DNA from: Bacillota bacterium
Lineage (GTDB): Bacteria; Bacillota; SHA-98; UBA4971
NCBI GenBank assembly: GCA_012516125.1
Contig: JAAYXB010000027.1
Location: 102,093-166,092 of the forward strand
Length of the DNA: 64,000 nucleotides
Direction: 5' to 3'
Shown piece by piece: positions 3,893 to 58,457 of the stretch; position 1 is the stretch's first letter; each line of letters opens with the position of its first letter. Under the pieces are notes generated by a model. The model ran no database searches. It was not told the DNA's origin and saw only the letters and a list, made by a program, of their open reading frames with translations. The position numbers were made by a program, and so were the translations under genes.

Positions 3893-4609
3893 CTACCCAC
3901 GCACCTCGACAACAACGGGGATGTCTCCCGCGAGGCCGTAGAAATCCCGTACGGCGCGCTCCACCCGTGCCGCGAGCACGGTCTCCGCCACGCCCTCCCC
4001 GTCCGGGGCATCCTGGTCTGCGACCATGCCCGCGCCGTTGCCCTGTTCCTGCCCGTGCACCTGTCCCTGTCCCTGTCCCTGTCCCTCTCCCTCTCCCTCT
4101 CCCCCTCCCCCTCCCTTTCCCTGTCTTTGCCTCTGGTCGCTACCGCGTTCGCCTTCGGGGGAACGAGTTTGCCAGCGGGCTGAGGTGACCCGCACGACCA
4201 CGCGGATTCCGGATAGATCCCCCGAAGGCGCCAGGTCCACCCGGGCGTCCACTGCCTCAGCACCCGAGGCGAGGCGAGCGAGGGACTCGACCTGTCTTTC
4301 GAGGCGTGTGCGGACGTCCCGGCTCGCTATCTCCAGCCCGGCCTGGGCTATCCTGTTCCCTTCTGCCGCGTAGTCATGCCGCCCGCCGCCTGCAGCTTCG
4401 GACAGGTCCGGAATCGAAGGCGTTGCGAGAGCCTCCTCCACAGAGGAAAGGTCCACGAGGGACCCCAGGATGATCGCCACCAGCACAAGGCCGATGACGA
4501 CCCTCGCGAACTTGCGGAGATCGTTCCGTGGAAGCAGCATCTCCGCGAACGCGAGGATGAGCGCCATGACCGCGAGATCCCGCACCCACCCGGATATGGC
4601 GTCTATCAT
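3893..4609 (-). CDS. spoIIIAF: stage III sporulation protein AF
   Basis: Two N-terminal TM helices (MIDAISGWVRDLAVMALILAFAEMLLP...) as in SpoIIIAF, operon position. Carries a GEGEGQGQGQ low-complexity insert encoded by a hexanucleotide tract around 4040-4140. Confidence 0.75.
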   Translation of the reverse strand: MIDAISGWVRDLAVMALILAFAEMLLPRNDLRKFARVVIGLVLVAIILGSLVDLSSVEEALATPSIPDLSEAAGGGRHDYAAEGNRIAQAGLEIASRDVRTRLERQVESLARLASGAEAVDARVDLAPSGDLSGIRVVVRVTSARWQTRSPEGERGSDQRQRQGKGGGGGEGEGEGQGQGQGQVHGQEQGNGAGMVADQDAPDGEGVAETVLAARVERAVRDFYGLAGDIPVVVEVRG

Positions 4610-14384: not shown

Positions 14385-15553
14385 GAGTCCTCCACCCCCC
14401 GCAGCGCAAGCCCGATTGCAACCGAAAGCGACGGCCCGTGCGCAGCGAGCACGTCGGCGAGGCGATCCGTCTTCGCCGGGGATGCGTTCTTCAGCGGGTT
14501 CCCGGGGCTCACCGCCACGCCGAGGCTGCTCTCGAGGAACTCGGCCAGCCCTGCGAGCCTCGACCCGCCGCCGGTGAGTATGACCGAGGCGATGGGCGCG
14601 TCCGCGCCGCGCCTTGTCCTCGCCTGGGCGTTGCAATAGTCGATAGACCGCCTCAGCTCTACGGCAAGCCTCGCTGCAACGCTGGCGAGCGCCTGCTCGA
14701 CAGCGCCATCCTCAGAAGCGGCGTCGTCCACCAAGGCGCCACCGGCTACCGCCGTAGAGGACGGCACCGGCACACGACACCTGCGCTTGGCTGTCTCCGC
14801 CCAACCCGCGCCGCGGCCCGTAGCCTCGGCCACGGCGGCTGTGAAGTCGTTCCCACCTATGGGAACGATCCGCGTGAACCGAAGCACGCCGCCCTCGGAG
14901 TAGGCGAGGTCGGTGGTCCCTCCTCCGATGTCCGCACAAAAGGCCGAGGACTCGGCGTTGCCGTCGCGGAATACGCGGTCCAGCGTGATAGGCTGGATGT
15001 CGAGGGCCAGCGGGTACAGCCCCGCAAGCTGCATGGTCTCGACATGGCTCTGCACGAGCTTCTTCGGGGCGGCCACGATCATGACCTCGATCTTGTCGGG
15101 TGAGCCCGCCGGGGAGCCGACGATTTGGAAGTCTATGCTCGCGTCTTTCGCAGGGTAGGGGATGTACGCCCCCGCGTCCCACTTCACCGCCTGGGCAAGT
15201 TCCTCCCTTGGCATGCGGGGGAAAAGCGCATGCCTCACCACGACATCGTCGCCTGCGATGGCAGCGTATACCTCGTTGGATCGGATGCCACCCGCGCGCA
15301 TGGCCTCCTTCACGGCGGCGGCGACCTTCGGAGGGTCGAGGACGCTCCCCTCGGCGACCGCGCCTTCGGGCGTGGGATGTACCCCGGCGCGAGTTATCTC
15401 GACCGCGCTCTTTGTTTTCGTGATCTCGACCACCTTGATGAGGGTGGTCCCGATGTCAAGCCCCACGGCGCGCTTCGCGCCGCCGAACGGAAGAAGCGGG
15501 CTCAGACGACCGCCTCCTTTCGAAGCATGAACCCTAATACTGGGCCGCCACAC
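14381..15553 (-). CDS. pilM: type IV pilus assembly ATPase-fold protein PilM
   Basis: Actin-like PilM (VGLDIGTTLIKVVEITKTKSAVEITRAGVHPTPEGAVAEGSVLDPPKVAAAVKEAM). Start uncertain by about 20 codons. Confidence 0.8.
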   Translation of the reverse strand: MWRPSIRVHASKGGGRLSPLLPFGGAKRAVGLDIGTTLIKVVEITKTKSAVEITRAGVHPTPEGAVAEGSVLDPPKVAAAVKEAMRAGGIRSNEVYAAIAGDDVVVRHALFPRMPREELAQAVKWDAGAYIPYPAKDASIDFQIVGSPAGSPDKIEVMIVAAPKKLVQSHVETMQLAGLYPLALDIQPITLDRVFRDGNAESSAFCADIGGGTTDLAYSEGGVLRFTRIVPIGGNDFTAAVAEATGRGAGWAETAKRRCRVPVPSSTAVAGGALVDDAASEDGAVEQALASVAARLAVELRRSIDYCNAQARTRRGADAPIASVILTGGGSRLAGLAEFLESSLGVAVSPGNPLKNASPAKTDRLADVLAAHGPSLSVAIGLALRGVEDS

Positions 15554-15790
15554 CTGAAACCATTCTCAAAAGTCGGGAGCGTCTTCGTACGGGACTGTTG
15601 AACTCCGCCAGCAGCTACCCGTTTAGCCCGGCACGGCGACGGTTTTGGGCGATTCGGCCCGGTCATCGTGACACGATGTGGGAACCATCAACAGTCTCTT
15701 ACTCCCGTACTTACTGCTGTGCTACACAGGCAAAGGAACCTGGAAGACGTCACCAAACCGGGAAATCGGCGCAGACTGGTGCTCCCACGC

Positions 15791-32113: not shown

Positions 32114-32389
32114 GCTATCCCTCCCTTGTGCGCCTTTTTCCCGGGCGTCCGCCCGGCTATACGGGGGCCGGGAACGCCCGCGCGGCAGGACACAATCTAC
32201 AGGCAGGACACAGTCTACAGCATGATATTGAGGCGCGGAGGAGTAGGTGCTTGGGCACCAACGCCATCTCACATCATGATTCTGTCCACTTCATGGCATC
32301 GCTGCTCGGTAAAGCTCCGGAAGTAAAGCCCCGGAAGACGGCGGCTGTGGACAGTTAAACTGACGGCTACTTGGTAAGACTAGCAGGCA

Positions 32390-32506
32390 CGTAGAGAGAT
32401 TGCTCCCGACCTTTGGAAGGGGTTGCCGGTGACTCGAAGAGAGAGTTCAACACCGGCAACCCATCAGATGCTGACAAGCCGCGAGCAACTAACGAACCGT
32501 GGGTTA
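32390..32506 (+). repeat. MITE-like repeat, copy F (short variant)
   Basis: GATTGCTCCCGACCTTTGGAAGGGGTTGCCGGTGACTCGAAGAGAGAGTTCAACACCGGCAACCCATCAG...GGGTTAG is highly similar to copy E. The terminal TTAG overlaps the purB stop codon (32504-32506). Confidence 0.55.
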
Positions 32507-33796
32507 GACCCCGACCCGACGAAAGATATCGTCGATGTGGGCGAGGTGTCTCGAGAGGTCGAAACAAGCCTCTATATCGGTGGGCTTCAGCACGGCGGTG
32601 ATCTCGGGGTCGCCAGAGATGAGCTCCTTGAAGTTCAGCCCTTCGTCCCAGGCCCGGGCGGCGTTCCGCTGCACGAGCGCGTACGCGTGCTCACGGCTAA
32701 GCCCGCGCCCCACGAGGGCCAGCATCACAGCCTCGGAGAATACGAGGCCGCCCGTCATCTCGAGGTTGGCCTGCATTCTGTCCTTTCTTACAACGAGGCC
32801 CTCCATTACCTCGGCGAACTTCCGAAGCATGTAATCCATGAGGGTGGTCGCGTCGGGGAGCACGATCCTCTCAACAGAGGAGTTGCTGATGTCTCGCTCA
32901 TGCCACAGGGGCGTGTTTTCCATAGCAGCCATGGCGTACCCCCGCATCACTCTCGCGAGACCGGTGATCCGCTCTGAAACGATAGGATTGCGCTTGTGCG
33001 GCATGGCCGAGGACCCTTTCTGGCCCGGCCTGAACGGCTCCTGCACCTCGAATACCTCGGTGCGCTGGAGACCCCGTATCTCGGTGGCGAACTTCTCCAG
33101 GGAGCTGGCGATGATGGCGAGGGTGGTGACGTATTCTGCGTGGCGGTCGCGCGAGAGCACCTGGGTTGAGGCCTTCGCAGCCTCGAGCCCAAGCTTGCTG
33201 CATACATACTCCTCGACCCTCGGGTCCATGCTCGCATAGGTGCCGACGGCGCCCGAGATCCTGCCCACGCTCACCACCTCGCGTGCCCTCTGCATCCTCG
33301 CGAGATTGCGGCGCATCTCGGCGACCCAGACCGCCAGCTTGAGCCCGAAGGTGATAGGCTCGGCATGCACGCCGTGAGTCCTGCCGACCATGGGCGTGTT
33401 CTTGTATTCCCGAGCCTTCTCGGCAAGGACGTCGATGACCTTGCGGATGTCCCGAATGATTATGTCCGCGGCGTCCCGCAGGAGCAGCGAGAGGGCGGTA
33501 TCCACCACGTCGTACGACGTCATGCCCATGTGGATGTAGCGTGCCTCGGGGCCGACGTTCTCTGATACGTTCGTGAGGAACGCTATGACGTCGTGGTCGA
33601 CTATCGCCTCTATCTCGCGAATCCTCGCGATGTCGAACCGAGCCTTTTCCCTGATGGCCTCAACGGCGTCCGCCGGCACTCGCCCTATGCTCGCCCAGCC
33701 CTCGCAGGCCAGGATCTCGATCTCCAGCCATTTCCTGTAGCGGTTCTCTGGCTCCCAGAGTTGCTTCATCTCGGGATACGTGTAACGCTCTATCAT
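32504..33796 (-). CDS. purB: adenylosuccinate lyase
   Basis: MIERYTYPEMKQLWEPENRYRKWLEIEILACEGWA plus the fumarate-lyase signature region. Start at ATG near 33796 with GGAGG RBS. The ORF-track 49-aa N-terminal extension is artefact. Confidence 0.9.
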   Translation of the reverse strand: MIERYTYPEMKQLWEPENRYRKWLEIEILACEGWASIGRVPADAVEAIREKARFDIARIREIEAIVDHDVIAFLTNVSENVGPEARYIHMGMTSYDVVDTALSLLLRDAADIIIRDIRKVIDVLAEKAREYKNTPMVGRTHGVHAEPITFGLKLAVWVAEMRRNLARMQRAREVVSVGRISGAVGTYASMDPRVEEYVCSKLGLEAAKASTQVLSRDRHAEYVTTLAIIASSLEKFATEIRGLQRTEVFEVQEPFRPGQKGSSAMPHKRNPIVSERITGLARVMRGYAMAAMENTPLWHERDISNSSVERIVLPDATTLMDYMLRKFAEVMEGLVVRKDRMQANLEMTGGLVFSEAVMLALVGRGLSREHAYALVQRNAARAWDEGLNFKELISGDPEITAVLKPTDIEACFDLSRHLAHIDDIFRRVGV

Positions 33797-33949
33797 GCCA
33801 TGTCGCCTCCGATGCTTCGACGCGTTGGCCGCGCCCGTACCGCCCGTACCGCCGCGGCCCCCTGGGTTGGCTTCTCCTTGGCTTCTCCCGTCGCCCGCTT
33901 CCGAACCCCGAACCCCGTTCGAACCCCGGCTCACAGCCGGCACTGGACT

Positions 33950-43543: not shown

Positions 43544-44051
43544 TCTCCTGCCTCCCGTTCCCAGGGACTATCCGGGTCATCCCGAAATCAGGCGCCAGCT
43601 TGGAGATACATGAAACCGCAGGCCCACACAAGGTGTGTTTGCGAGCGGGTGCAGACGGTCGTCATGGCCGCCAAGGAATAGCATGCCGGAGGCCGCGCGC
43701 CGGTATGCCGCCGGTGTGCCGCCAAGCGAGGGTGGGTTAACTCTCGTCCGTTCGACGCCCCGACGCAGCCGCCTTCGGGCAAGCCGCAAGCTACTGCGCG
43801 ACTGTGCAGTCATGCGGCGGACGATCCGCCGTTCATCCGCTGATTATGCGGCCTACAATTCGCTACCAGCTGGCCAATCCTCCAGCGACTGGTTCGCCGA
43901 AAATCGGGTGACTTGCCGACGTGCGGTTCGCCAGTGAGTAGATGATTGTGCGCGCCAATGCTCTACCCATCCGCTGTTTCGCCAGCAAACGACTCGCACA
44001 CGCCCGGCTGGCACCCGCTCGGCCGATCATGCACAGGACGATCAAAAGCCG

Positions 44052-44253
44052 CTCAGTGAGGGTGCAGAAATGCTCCCGAGCTTTGGGAGGGGTTGCCGAT
44101 GATTGCACGAGGGGTGTCAAAATCCGGCTGCCTAGCCAGACGGGCCGGATTTTGGCGAAGCGCGCCCCGCTTGGGGCGCCGTCCCCGAGCGCAACACCGG
44201 CAACCCGGCAACTACTGGAAGAGGGGCGAGAACTAACGCACCCTTACTTCGAG
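44052..44253 (+). repeat. MITE-like structured repeat, copy A (long form)
   Basis: Begins CTCAGTGAGGGTGCA and ends GCACCCTTACTTCGAG (degenerate TIRs). Core TTTGGGAGGGGTTGCCGATGATTGCACGAGGGGTGTCAAAATCCGGCTGCCTAGCCAGACGGGCCGGATTTTGG...CAACACCGGCAACCCGGCAACTACTGGAAGAGGGGCGAG is about 90% identical to copy B. Confidence 0.75.
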
Positions 44254-44419
44254 GATAAGCCAGGGGACAGACCGCTTGGCTGATCGTGCGTGGGACGATC
44301 GTCAGCCTTTGACTGTCGCAGGATGTGACGCAACACCTCGCGGGGACATAGACTGTATCGGGAAGTAAAGGATCTTCCCCCCAGCGAGCGGCAAGTCTCC
44401 GAAATCTGGAGGGAGGGAG

Positions 44420-44641
44420 ATGGCGGAGCCTCTGGCTGTAGGTGATTTCGTCACCAGGAAGTCTTATGATGGTGACGTCGTCTTCAAGGTCGTCGCCGTC
44501 GAGGGCGATAGCGTCCTGCTACGCGGCGTCCTGCTCAGGATCATGGCAGATGCCCCTACAAGCGACGTTGTGAAGGTCGAGCCGGAGCGTGCCCTCCTGG
44601 CACTGCGCTCTCTCGAACGCTTTGAAAGGAAAACAGGCTAA
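44420..44641 (+). CDS. small hypothetical protein (73 aa; possible SH3/KOW-like beta-barrel)
   Basis: Strong RBS GGAGGGAG 5 nt before the ATG. One of only four plus-strand genes in the window. Pattern VGDFVTRKSYDGDVVFKVVAVEGDSVLL resembles small Bacillus beta-barrel proteins (YkvS/DUF2187-like), from memory. Flanked by repeat copies A and B; its stop lies in the copy B TIR. Confidence 0.4.
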   Translation: MAEPLAVGDFVTRKSYDGDVVFKVVAVEGDSVLLRGVLLRIMADAPTSDVVKVEPERALLALRSLERFERKTG

Positions 44642-44835
44642 GTGGGGGTGCAAAAATGCTCCCGACTTTTGGGAGGGGTTGCCGGTGATTGCACGAGGGG
44701 TGTCAAAATCCGGCTGCCTAGCCGGACGGGCCGGATTTTGTCAAGACGCCCCGCTTGGGGCGCCGTCCCCGAGCGCAACACCGGCAACCCGGCAACTACT
44801 GGAAGAGGGGCGAGGACTAATGCACCTTCACTTAG
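44638..44835 (+). repeat. MITE-like structured repeat, copy B (long form)
   Basis: TIRs CTAAGTGGGGGTGCA...TGCACCTTCACTTAG. Internal nested inverted repeats: GGTTGCCGGTG/CACCGGCAACC, CAAAATCCGGC/GCCGGATTTTG and CGCCCC-GCTT-GGGGCG. The left TIR supplies the TAA stop of ORF 44420-44641. Confidence 0.8.
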
Positions 44836-44872
44836 GACCGCAAGTAGCGCCAGGAAAGGAGTGGTTTGAGGC

Positions 44873-45196
44873 ATGCGGACCATTACCAGAGAAGAGCTTA
44901 TGCAACTCGAACAGTACATTAAGACGCTTCCACCTCAGGACAAAGAGCCGCAGGTCCTCGCGAGCCCGCAGCAGCTCACGTTCGTCCTTGCAAGGGCCAC
45001 ATGGTTCAGGCAGCAGGCCCCCGAGGGCAGCAGAGTTCTCTGGATCGCTTCCACTGATTCAGGATACGTTACGAGGACGGTGAGCGAGGACTTCGTGGCA
45101 AACTGGGGCTCAGTGATCATGGCCGCGGATCAATTGTGGCTGGGCGTCGATGCAAACTCCGTCATCATGCTGTGGCAGCCCGGGGCGACTTTCTAG
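44873..45196 (+). CDS. hypothetical protein (107 aa)
   Basis: RBS AGGAAAGGAG 8 nt before the ATG. No recognisable motif (MRTITREELMQLEQYIKTLPPQDKEPQVLASPQQLTFVLARATWFRQQAPEGSRVLWIAS...). Lies between repeat copies B and C. Confidence 0.35.
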   Translation: MRTITREELMQLEQYIKTLPPQDKEPQVLASPQQLTFVLARATWFRQQAPEGSRVLWIASTDSGYVTRTVSEDFVANWGSVIMAADQLWLGVDANSVIMLWQPGATF

Positions 45197-45294
45197 GCGT
45201 TGGGTTGGAGGGCTCGCGACAGGGCGTGCGGGCAGGCACACAAAATCAGGTGACCCCCGGGAAACGGGCGACCTTTCCCGGGGGATTACCGAAT

Positions 45295-45382
45295 TAAGTG
45301 AAGGTGCACAAATGCATCCAACCCATGGGAGGGATCGCCGGTGACTCGGCCGGTGACCAGGACCTCACGCACCCTCACTTAG
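45295..45382 (+). repeat. MITE-like repeat, copy C (short, degenerate)
   Basis: TTAAGTGAAGGTGCAC ... GGGAGGGATCGCCGGTGACTCGGCCGGTGACC ... GCACCCTCACTTAG. Same TIRs with the internal region reduced to about 60 bp. Ends 21 bp before the stop of the lipoprotein gene. Confidence 0.6.
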
Positions 45383-45403
45383 GCGCCTCAGTGGGGCGCG
45401 TGC

Positions 45404-46192
45404 CTACCGTGAGATCGCGAACTGCTTGCTCACGCCGTACGGGATGTAGAGCACCCACTTGAGGCCTTCGAGGGTCGGGTCAGCAGCGAAGTCCTTTGTG
45501 AACTTAGGGAAGATCAAGAACCCTCTTTTCCACGATCTCGCTGCCACCGGACCGTCGATATCATTCTTCACCGGGACCGGATAATAGTAGGTCTTTGCGA
45601 TCTTCGCGGTCTCAACAGTATAGTAGGCCTCGAGCTGAGGGTATATCGACACCTCGTGGTCGAGCGTGTTCTCTATCAGGATATCGAACTTGATTTCCGC
45701 GGGAAGCTCCAGAAGGGCGAGAACGGTCACGCGGACGCCGTCGACCTCGCAGGGTTCCTTGAACATGACCCCCGGAAGGAAGCTGTCCGAAGCCCATCCG
45801 CGCCCACGCCTGCCATCGTCCACTATAGACCATCTGCCGTCGCCGGACTTTTGCGCTTTCACGTACCTGACACCGAAGTTGCCGTCGCCGTCCTTGAACA
45901 CGACTTTCACAAGGTGGTAGTCGGCGAAGGTCGCGCTCTCGCAAGACACCAGGGCAGGAACGCCCGAGCGCTTCTCCCCCGTAGCGCTTGTGTATTCCAC
46001 CCAGGACCTTGCCGCACCTGCTGCAAGTTTAATGGCCTCGGAATACTCACCCGATTCCATCGCAGTCACGTAGCGCACCGCGAGTTCCTGTGCATCCTTC
46101 GCGTCGTCGGCAAGAGCGGGACACGCTCGAACCATGGCGAGAACCAGCGCCAGCAACGACAGCGCGAACAGAACGGGCAGCTTCTTTGACAT
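45404..46192 (-). CDS. secreted/lipoprotein of unknown function
   Basis: MSKKLPVLFALSLLALVLAMVRAC is a signal peptide with a possible lipobox Cys. About 260 aa mature protein, no recognised catalytic motif. Start at ATG 46192. Confidence 0.5.
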   Translation of the reverse strand: MSKKLPVLFALSLLALVLAMVRACPALADDAKDAQELAVRYVTAMESGEYSEAIKLAAGAARSWVEYTSATGEKRSGVPALVSCESATFADYHLVKVVFKDGDGNFGVRYVKAQKSGDGRWSIVDDGRRGRGWASDSFLPGVMFKEPCEVDGVRVTVLALLELPAEIKFDILIENTLDHEVSIYPQLEAYYTVETAKIAKTYYYPVPVKNDIDGPVAARSWKRGFLIFPKFTKDFAADPTLEGLKWVLYIPYGVSKQFAISR

Positions 46193-46626: not shown

Positions 46627-48876
<2,250 letters not shown>

Positions 48877-52314: not shown

Positions 52315-52514
52315 CTAAGTGAGGGTGCGTCAGGCCTTGTCCCTTTTCCAGTAGTTGCCGGGTTGCCGGTGTTGTACTCGGGCACGGCGCCCCAAGCGGG
52401 GCGCGCTTCGCCAAACTCCGGCCCGTCTGGCCAGCGGCCGGATCTTGACACCTCTTGTGCAATCGCCGGCAACCCCTCCCAAAAAACCGGAACCATTCTT
52501 GCACCCTCACTTAG
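52315..52514 (-). repeat. MITE-like structured repeat, copy D (long form, inverted orientation)
   Basis: Perfect 14-bp TIRs CTAAGTGAGGGTGC / GCACCCTCACTTAG. Its reverse complement aligns to copy B at about 85-90% identity. Sits between the convergent NlpC/P60 gene (stop 52298) and dgkA, whose stop (52511-52513) lies inside the TIR. Confidence 0.8.
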
Positions 52515-52894
52515 AGGAGGCGGAGGAGGGCGCGGGCCACGGGGACAAGTTTCGGCCCGAGGACCGCGGCACCCACGACGGTCGCCCACGCGGCGCTTAC
52601 AAGCACAGTTCCCGCGGCTATGTCCTTCACGGTCTTGACCCGAATTTCCCAGGTAGGGCAGGCTATATCACAGATGAGTTCGAGGGCGGTGTTGGCAAGC
52701 TCGCAGATGAGGACGAGGGCGATGGCAAGGGCGAGGCACGCAAGCTCGACCATCGATACCCCGAGGGCGCCCGCGGCCGCCAGCACAGAGGCGGCCGCGA
52801 TGAAATGAATGCGCATGTTGCGCTCGGTGGAGAGCACAGCCTTCACGCCCTGCACAGCGCAGCGAAAGCTCTCTCCGAGCGACCTGGTCTTCAC
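52511..52894 (-). CDS. dgkA: diacylglycerol/undecaprenol kinase
   Basis: DgkA three-TM fold (ESFRCAVQGVKAVLSTERNMRIHF..ELANTALELICD). Stop codon inside the TIR of repeat copy D. Confidence 0.8.
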   Translation of the reverse strand: MKTRSLGESFRCAVQGVKAVLSTERNMRIHFIAAASVLAAAGALGVSMVELACLALAIALVLICELANTALELICDIACPTWEIRVKTVKDIAAGTVLVSAAWATVVGAAVLGPKLVPVARALLRLL

Positions 52895-58333: not shown

Positions 58334-58457
58334 CTTCGTGAGGGCGCAAAGATGCTCGCGACTTTGGGAGGGGTTGCCGGTGACTCAAAGAGAGAGTGCA
58401 ACACCGGCAACCCAGCAACTACTGGAAAACGGACAAGAACCGGCGTACCTTAACTTA
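58334..58457 (+). repeat. MITE-like repeat, copy E (short variant)
   Basis: CTTCGTGAGGGCGCA...GACTTTGGGAGGGGTTGCCGGTGACTCAAAGAGAGAGTGCAACACCGGCAACCCAGCAACTACTGGAAAACGGACAAG...CCTTAACTTAC. The long middle hairpin is replaced by a short ACTC...GAGT stem. The end supplies the stop of the hypothetical gene 58455-59066. Confidence 0.65.

Follow-up and report, generated by a model that had tools for sequence, protein, structure and literature searches.

Introduction

The small repeats closest to the one studied here belong with the insertion sequences IS630 and ISY100, whose derivatives among miniature transposable elements with inverted repeats (MITEs) include the Streptococcus pneumoniae RUP and the cyanobacterial Nezha, both linked to IS630-type transposases. 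The subject of this study is a repeat family present in 64,000 nucleotides (nt) of a Bacillota bacterium (GenBank assembly GCA_012516125.1, contig JAAYXB010000027.1, positions 102,093 to 166,092 of the forward strand). This whole 64-kb stretch is referred to as the window; within it, three copies of the repeat are clustered around two small genes. A preliminary description, made from the letters of the window alone, had proposed a mobilisable, non-autonomous, MITE-like family. Empty and filled insertion sites, together with the copy number in related genomes, support this proposal. With regard to the known systems, IS630 prefers TA within CTAG as its target (Tenzen & Ohtsubo, 1991, cited in Feng & Colloms, 2007, PMC2170065). 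IS630 and ISY100 duplicate the TA, and enzymes of this type excise their elements by double-strand breaks, for which the transposase is sufficient (PMC2170065).

The family described here resembles IS630, ISY100 and the MITE derivatives RUP and Nezha in its insertion into TA with a 2-bp duplication, and IS630 also in the preference for CTAG. With IS630-type MITEs it shares short terminal inverted repeats (TIRs), the lack of coding capacity, a copy number of tens to hundreds, and the occurrence of internal-deletion derivatives. It differs from IS630, ISY100, RUP and Nezha in sequence, as no similarity was found in Rfam, in plasmid and phage collections or in the searched literature, and in its hosts, which are uncultured GC-rich Bacillota of biogas and thermophilic reactors. 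Furthermore, neither the window nor about 0.7 Mb of fetched loci yielded an IS630-type partner.

Correia elements (CREE) of Neisseria also duplicate TA. They are similar to the present family in size (100-200 nt), in their TIRs and in having a long and a short form, the difference being an internal segment, and they are likewise without a known autonomous partner. In contrast, their sequence and host phylum are unrelated, and no promoter-like or IHF-type site was detected in the element studied here. We know of no strict CTAG context and no frequent placement on stop codons among the features of Correia elements.

Other small repeats share single traits with the family. The pneumococcal repeats BOX, RUP and SPRITE gather between genes, where they also become inserted in each other (PMC10969869). 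Bunching and nesting are seen here as well, in the three-copy cluster and in nested copies at the loci L072, L056 and L100, although the families are different. A single in-frame copy (L016:1873-2014) recalls the Rickettsia palindromic elements (RPE); unlike these, the family is otherwise intergenic. REP, BIME and REPIN sequences are also intergenic, hairpin-forming and high in copy number. However, REPs are palindromes of 20-40 nt which are moved by the Y1 transposase RAYT without target duplication, whereas the present elements measure 120-194 nt, duplicate TA and have ends that are not self-palindromic.

Database comparisons gave no name for the family. Rfam returned 0 hits at the gathering score for the whole window, and only two chance-level matches (E about 9) for the cluster region 43900-45500 when matches up to E = 10 were admitted. 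Using blastn, a long copy found no match in plasmid and phage collections, and a single match among viral contigs, inside a phage gene, was due to chance. A literature string search with the end and core sequences retrieved only unrelated primers. The view that the repeat belongs to no named family was thus upheld by Rfam and literature strings, families lacking an Rfam model not being comparable by sequence.

Insertion at CTAG and Duplication of TA

The locus with the two small genes was gathered from biogas-fermenter and JGI (Joint Genome Institute) assemblies by means of the exact sequences of the two small proteins. Among assemblies that are 98-100% identical, copy c2 (Table 1) was found to be polymorphic. 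Specifically, it is filled in L075 and L081, where the locus is identical to the window, and empty in L076, L077 and L083. The empty allele has the short context GGCTAGGACC, and over a longer stretch it reads AAAACAGGCTAGGACCGC and GAAAACAGGCTAGGACCGCAAG. The filled allele is AAAACAGGC-TA-AGTGGGGGTGC...GCACCTTCACT-TA-GGACCGC or, with wider flanks, GAAAACAGGC-TA-AGTGGGGGTGC...GCACCTTCACT-TA-GGACCGCAAG. In the window, the site reads GGC-TA-(192 nt)-TA-GGACC, and filled minus empty amounts to 194 nt, which is the 192-nt element plus a second TA. The site is empty in more distant relatives, which makes the event an insertion.

A short copy (L056:3940-4063) lies inside another repeat and provided a second, independent empty site: where that repeat is uninterrupted, it reads CCGCC-CTAG-CAAGCACC. 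These two cases show that movement takes place as DNA, that CTAG is the insertion site and that its central TA is duplicated; the target-site duplication that the preliminary description had recommended looking for is therefore present in both.

The flanks of 68 full-length copies, collected as described below, agree with this target. Position -1 is C in 61 copies and position +1 is G in 59, both being present in 54, and no conservation was found beyond these two positions in the same set. TA flanks both ends of 47 of the 68 copies. Among the few flanks other than TA are some that are directly duplicated, TC..TC at c1 (inside C...G, a non-canonical dinucleotide) and AA..AA at L031, as target duplication predicts. 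Exact empty sites were not obtained for c1 and c3, as the intergenic DNA of relatives is too diverged; the emptiness of these sites was taken from spacer length and the lack of an nhmmer match.

CTAG is rare in the window, with 37 sites compared to 213 expected from base composition, an about six-fold depletion, while other palindromic tetramers occur 144-385 times. Targets are consequently scarce. Many of them are found at the ends of genes, C-TAG being there a stop codon together with the base before it. Copies c1 and c2 each contain one of the 37 sites (44132 and 44718), and CTAG sites within elements account for the nested insertions.

Three copies in the window are placed on stop codons: c2 on that of the 73-amino-acid (aa) protein gene, c4 on that of dgkA, the TAA of which consists of TA and the first A of c4, and c5 on that of an adenylosuccinate-lyase-like gene, whose TAA includes the 3' TA of the copy. 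In 11 of 67 unique copies of the family, a coding-looking open reading frame (ORF) ends exactly on the TAA at the 5' end; control frames gave 0-1. Insertion on a C-TAG stop turns TAG into TAA and leaves the protein unchanged, and this is the difference seen between the empty and the filled allele of c2.

Table 1. Copies of the element and associated genes in the window, with flanking dinucleotides and their positions
Feature	Position	Strand	Form or product	Match E value	Flanks
c1	44055-44248	+	long form, 194 nt	6e-61 (nhmmer)	TC 44053-44054; TC 44249-44250
c2	44641-44832	+	long form, 192 nt	7e-63 (nhmmer)	TA 44639-44640; TA 44833-44834
c3	45297-45379	+	internal-deletion derivative, 83 nt, both ends kept		TA 45295-45296; TA 45380-45381
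c4	52318-52511	-	long form, intact ends	3.9e-58 (nhmmer)	TA 52512-52513; TA 52316-52317
c5	~32383-32504	+	short form, decayed 5' end	5e-12 (nhmmer)	3' TA 32505-32506
c6	58337-58455	+	short form, ends partly mutated; upstream of yabP	1.3e-22 (nhmmer)	
Fragment	15551-15587	-	37 nt of the 5' part of the element	0.017	
73-aa protein gene	44420-44641	+	resident, not part of the element		
107-aa protein gene	44873-45196	+	conserved hypothetical protein; resident, not part of the element		
dgkA	52511-52894	-	Pfam DAGK_prokar		
Adenylosuccinate-lyase-like gene	32504-33943	-			

Copies in the Window and Anatomy of the Element

Self-comparison of the window resolved one repeat with six copies and one 37-nt fragment. 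All six copies that had been named from first inspection were recovered at their places by self-comparison and alignment, with refined coordinates. They can be aligned over their whole length, and the long copies are 88-95% identical in ungapped stretches. The 16-nt core TGGGAGGGGTTGCCGG has 9 matches in the window with up to 3 mismatches (1.4 expected), and the 12-nt end AAGTGAGGGTGC has 17 with up to 2 mismatches (5.1 expected); these numbers were reached in 0 of 100 shuffles in either case. Five of the six copies lie on the plus strand, and nearly all genes of the window lie on the minus strand.

Within the cluster, c1 is located about 170 nt upstream of the 73-aa protein gene and also upstream of the conserved leader block of that gene. 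It was found in all assemblies of the source species and is missing from the orthologous loci of relatives. With copy c2 inserted, the two small genes are separated by 231 nt instead of 37 nt. Copy c3, which consists of about 53 nt of the 5' end and about 24 nt of the 3' end, lies between the convergent 107-aa and 272-aa genes; in the relatives L094 and L096 the spacer at this site is 99 nt long and element-free. A decayed fourth cluster copy was sought in 43544-44052, where only a weak 3'-end match at 43724-43751 (E = 2.9) was detected. This region, which extends over about 500 nt from the HD-domain gene to c1, contains no convincing ORF, and the corresponding spacer is shorter in relatives.

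For c4 and c6 no polymorphism was seen, the other assemblies being filled or ending at the repeat. Short-read contigs of other samples (L089 and L090) end at window positions 52391 and 52509, in or exactly at c4, and the family thus fragments the assemblies of these organisms.

The family occurs in a long form of about 194 nt, a short form of about 120 nt, and decayed or deleted versions, with sizes of 83-198 nt overall. The element proper extends from AGTG to CACT. It starts with AGTGAGGGTGC and ends with GCACCCTCACT, and the terminal positions are at least 90% conserved among 41 long copies. TIRs of about 14 bp had been claimed in the preliminary description. The inverted repeat is real; the outermost C-TA and TA-G, however, are target and duplication and do not belong to the element. 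In the interior, stems are nested about a core of 12-13 bp (GGGGTTGCCGGTG/CACCGGCAACCC). This core has either a short tip, as in the element of about 120 nt, or the 73-nt-longer branched insert of the element of about 194 nt. The copies have no coding capacity and are crossed by spurious read-through ORFs only. Taken together, the features by which MITEs are generally recognised were all found: small size (below roughly 300 nt), lack of coding sequence, TIRs, TA duplication between empty and filled sites, dispersed copies, and polymorphism.

Many internal-deletion derivatives keep both ends (L016, L027, L032 and c3). Several unrelated interiors were found between the same ends (L058:4108-4283 and a composite with a module X in L049 and L100), which is expected if one transposase recognises the ends alone. 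The window fragment at 15551-15587 adjoins sequence resembling the module X variant.

Further observations concern composites and ends. The composite of 310 nt is represented by L100:1850-2160, L049:6566-6805 and L015:1-210, with a relic at window 15588-15640. Near the 5' end of the MITE, a different element of about 110 nt with TIR GAGACTGTTGAT and a 6-bp duplication (GTGCAG) is nested inside it. As the composite is present at several loci, it kept moving after nesting. A second repeat, family B (L072:601-1000; L056:3940-4200; L059, L001 and L023), has ends like CTAAGTATGGCGCCATAAG and has the CACCGGCAAC core in common with the MITE family. Its flanks, too, are C-TA...TA-G, copies of either family are nested in the other, and some copies bear one end of each.

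The two ends of a copy are sometimes altered in concert, for example at L053:7361-7558, with GTAGGGG...CCCCTAC instead of GTGAGGG...CCCTCAC. Similarly, the orthologous copies L007:7736-7858 and L069:3060-3182 have CA...TG in one metagenome-assembled genome (MAG) and TA...TA in the other; L002:2109-2306 is a further case. Such concerted changes suggest that the two ends are homogenised or that there are lineages of separate specificity.

Distribution in Related Genomes

The 20-nt core was scanned against one genome per species. At least 74 loci were matched; of the 74 listed, 72 were genuine and 2 were chance hits. The outcome by which the preliminary description would be refuted, a scan without further copies, thus did not occur. 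Among the matches listed, the genuine loci belong to seven related MAG assemblies, six of them labelled Bacillota or Clostridia and one 'Betaproteobacteria'. At least 45 loci were found in JACIXY01, at least 12 in JASEJE01, at least 7 in JBLNDE01 and at least 5 in JBLNCC01 (the 'Betaproteobacteria' MAG), and at least one each in UBA6811, a Fermentithermobacillaceae MAG and a Clostridia MAG.

A hidden Markov model (HMM) built from 23 intact copies was then applied to the fetched DNA with nhmmer and gave 167 non-overlapping matches in both orientations. With loci that duplicate the window excluded, 68 copies are full-length: 43 long, 24 short and one of 157 nt that spans a masked stretch. Only 4 of 111 matches were flagged as lying inside ORFs, and 3 of these were due to ORF over-extension; the family is otherwise intergenic. 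In the remaining case (L016:1873-2014), a deletion derivative lies within an ORF that is open over 980 codons and lengthens it by 138 nt (46 codons) without a shift of frame. The surrounding ORF encodes Pyr_redox_2 upstream of the copy and 4Fe-4S and MvhD/FlpD domains downstream and is HdrA-like. By analogy with the RPE of Rickettsia, this copy may be a tolerated in-frame MITE insertion.

The 'Betaproteobacteria bacterium MAG135' (L097 = JBLNCC010000010.1; also L005, L037, L044, L067 and L070) displays the Bacillota-type gene order secDF-HD-yabG-like-yajC-tgt. It also carries a 90%-identical 107-aa protein and the MITE. MAG135 is probably wrongly labelled or a mixed bin.

Mobilisation and the Missing Partner

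The best explanation, to which we assign a probability of roughly 80%, is a non-autonomous MITE family that targets CTAG, depends for its movement on a DDE transposase of the IS630/Tc1-mariner type acting in trans, and was inserted independently around resident genes. Such a transposase would bind both inverted ends of 11-13 bp, excise the element by double-strand cuts and paste it into TA. Internal deletions like that of c3 would be leftovers of abortive gap repair after excision. The target signature of IS630-type elements, namely insertion into TA, 2-bp duplication and preference for CTAG, was found in full.

Several points weigh against this explanation. The IS630 superfamily is inferred here from the target and duplication signature only. 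Perfect agreement between the two ends is limited to about 13 bases, and at L059, L001 and L023 some copies have one end from another family. Taken by itself, the comparison of empty and filled alleles is also compatible with an element that carries one TA and causes no duplication. An autonomous element with these ends was not found in the window or in the about 0.7 Mb of fetched loci, in which paired ends 0.7-3 kb apart enclose only housekeeping genes; with distances of 0.26-4 kb covered, dapB, znuA-like and HAD genes were the only ones enclosed. All-against-all blastp revealed no multi-copy ORF among the loci, and no transposase was recognised by Pfam among the 20 window ORFs scanned. Two further searches were made: generic inverted pairs of TAAGT...ACTTA 0.7-2.5 kb apart were only pairs of separate MITEs, and a metagenome scan for a variant with a different subterminal module retrieved only the 310-nt composite MITE.

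A partner of the IS5 family (IS427/IS1301-like) instead of the IS630 family is unlikely. IS1301 reportedly inserts at AYTAG and duplicates TA, so that a TA duplication at C-TA-G fits both families, and the searched loci contained no partner by which to choose between them. The copies, however, show no preference for A or Y at position -2, where G occurs in 31, C in 14, A in 12 and T in 11 of the 68. The ends, which read TA-AGTG, are only loosely like the TA-CAGTG ascribed to Tc1-like elements, which is a weak argument against an IS5 partner. In addition, the preference for TA in exactly CTAG has been shown experimentally for IS630 (cited in PMC2170065).

Predicted Folding, Orientation and a Possible Role in RNA

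The copies fold strongly in prediction (z about -5). For c4, a fold of -101.8 kcal/mol (z = -5.0) was predicted. A consensus structure from 41 long copies comprises 37 pairs, two of them G:U. Variant sites shared by at least 2 copies include 18 G:U compared with 7 A:C (p = 0.04, ignoring kinship; strand 5'-AGTGAGGGTGCAGAAATGC), and copies between tandem genes are co-oriented with these in 32 cases and opposed in 14 (p = 0.011, ignoring kinship). Genes for this orientation test were called crudely, ORFs being picked by third-codon-position GC.

These observations could be read as the mark of structured-RNA genes or cis-elements that are selected primarily for their fold, mobility being secondary or absent. 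We consider this very unlikely. The precise insertion with TA duplication is direct evidence of DNA transposition. Moreover, both strands fold about equally well (z = -5.5 for the opposite strand of c4), as expected of a structure that consists chiefly of inverted repeats. Covariation contributes no more than -0.76 kcal/mol, with double changes in 6 of the 37 pairs, and singleton variants are without G:U bias (13 compared with 17). The orientation test rests on the crude gene caller, and no Rfam match was obtained.

Apart from this, an element of the MITE family might act at the RNA level once inserted, as a co-transcribed hairpin in a 3' untranslated region or between cistrons that serves processing, stability or attenuation, in the way of Correia and ERIC sequences; we put this forward tentatively. 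The suggestion arises from the G:U excess, the two G:U pairs of the consensus and the co-orientation, which hint weakly that one strand is under selection and that propagating copies would retain its fold, and from the placement of about a quarter of the copies exactly on stops (TAG to TAA). Correia elements are transcribed together with adjacent genes, and RNase III cleaves them at their paired TIRs (PMC10969869); this is a plausible model for any such effect here. A Correia- or ERIC-like effect on co-transcribed mRNA is no more than a possibility. Within the element, neither a promoter-like site nor an IHF-type site was detected, and terminator-like sites were at shuffle level.

Strand and orientation biases also bear on movement as single-stranded DNA. 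A REPIN/REP-like or IS200/IS605-derived (PATE-like) element would be moved by a Y1/HUH transposase and would insert 3' of CTA with no true duplication. The difference between filled and empty alleles can indeed be parsed as AGTG...CACTTA inserted after CTA, and the mild G:T bias of the top strand and the orientation bias would be in line with such a mechanism. This explanation is nevertheless highly improbable. The ends mirror each other as an inverted repeat of 13-14 bp instead of forming separate subterminal hairpins, and the palindromic target is conserved on both sides (C at -1 and G at +1), which a guide mechanism does not require. The non-canonical flanks TC..TC and AA..AA are duplicated directly, and the 20-40-nt size of REPs is a further point against it. 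Finally, with five of six copies on the plus strand against minus-strand genes, the copies in the window show the opposite of the co-orientation seen at the other loci, so that there is no consistent link with replication direction.

The Two Small Genes

The two gaps between the cluster copies do contain plus-strand ORFs (Table 1), as the preliminary description had it; its view that these are orphans did not hold. The 73-aa protein matches PF05582 (YabG peptidase U57; E = 2.3e-12, 47.3 bits compared with a cut-off of 25), the match being to the N-terminal 57 residues of the 280-position YabG model. For the 107-aa protein, 15 full-length homologues were found with 65-97% identity and lengths of 107-112 aa. 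Its gene ends in an unoccupied C-TAG at 45193-45196. In relatives, which lack all three insertions, the gene order secDF-HD-(73 aa)(107 aa)-(262-aa gene)-yajC-tgt-queA is kept, and the two genes are 12-37 nt apart.

The cluster therefore results from three insertions, independent of one another and specific to the lineage, which lie in non-coding gaps around a small operon of two resident genes. A single composite mobile unit, made of the three copies with the two genes as cargo, might be argued for on the grounds that no other plus-strand genes lie in this minus-strand region and that each gene is bracketed by copies. It is refuted by synteny, since the gene pair occupies the same place in relatives without any copy within 6 kb (nhmmer), and one strain has both genes but only two of the three copies.

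Upstream of the 73-aa protein gene, the stretch 44322-44419 (GGATGTGACGC...CGGGGACATAGACTGTATCGGGAAG) is nearly invariant in relatives, whereas other intergenic DNA cannot be aligned. This block probably serves the small operon as promoter or leader. Elsewhere in the window, tandem repeats with a start-to-start spacing of 12 nt were noted at 48554-48623, where they encode a Gly/Glu-rich run inserted in a QueA-like protein, and at 4051-4103, where short repeats of the same spacing form a (GTCCCT)n-like run.

Significance

The family is new by sequence, while its kind, probably an IS630-type MITE, is well known, and no new kind of system is represented. It gives the uncultured GC-rich Bacillota of anaerobic digesters a defined and recently active mobile element, which is useful as a strain marker and accounts for assembly breaks, several contigs stopping right at its copies. 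It is also a clean natural example of how targeting of TA within CTAG puts a large hairpin on stop codons while the proteins stay unaltered. The two small genes of the cluster should no longer be taken for element-associated orphans. If the inserted element does act on co-transcribed mRNA, the polymorphic copy c2 would alter the coupling of these two small sporulation-associated genes.

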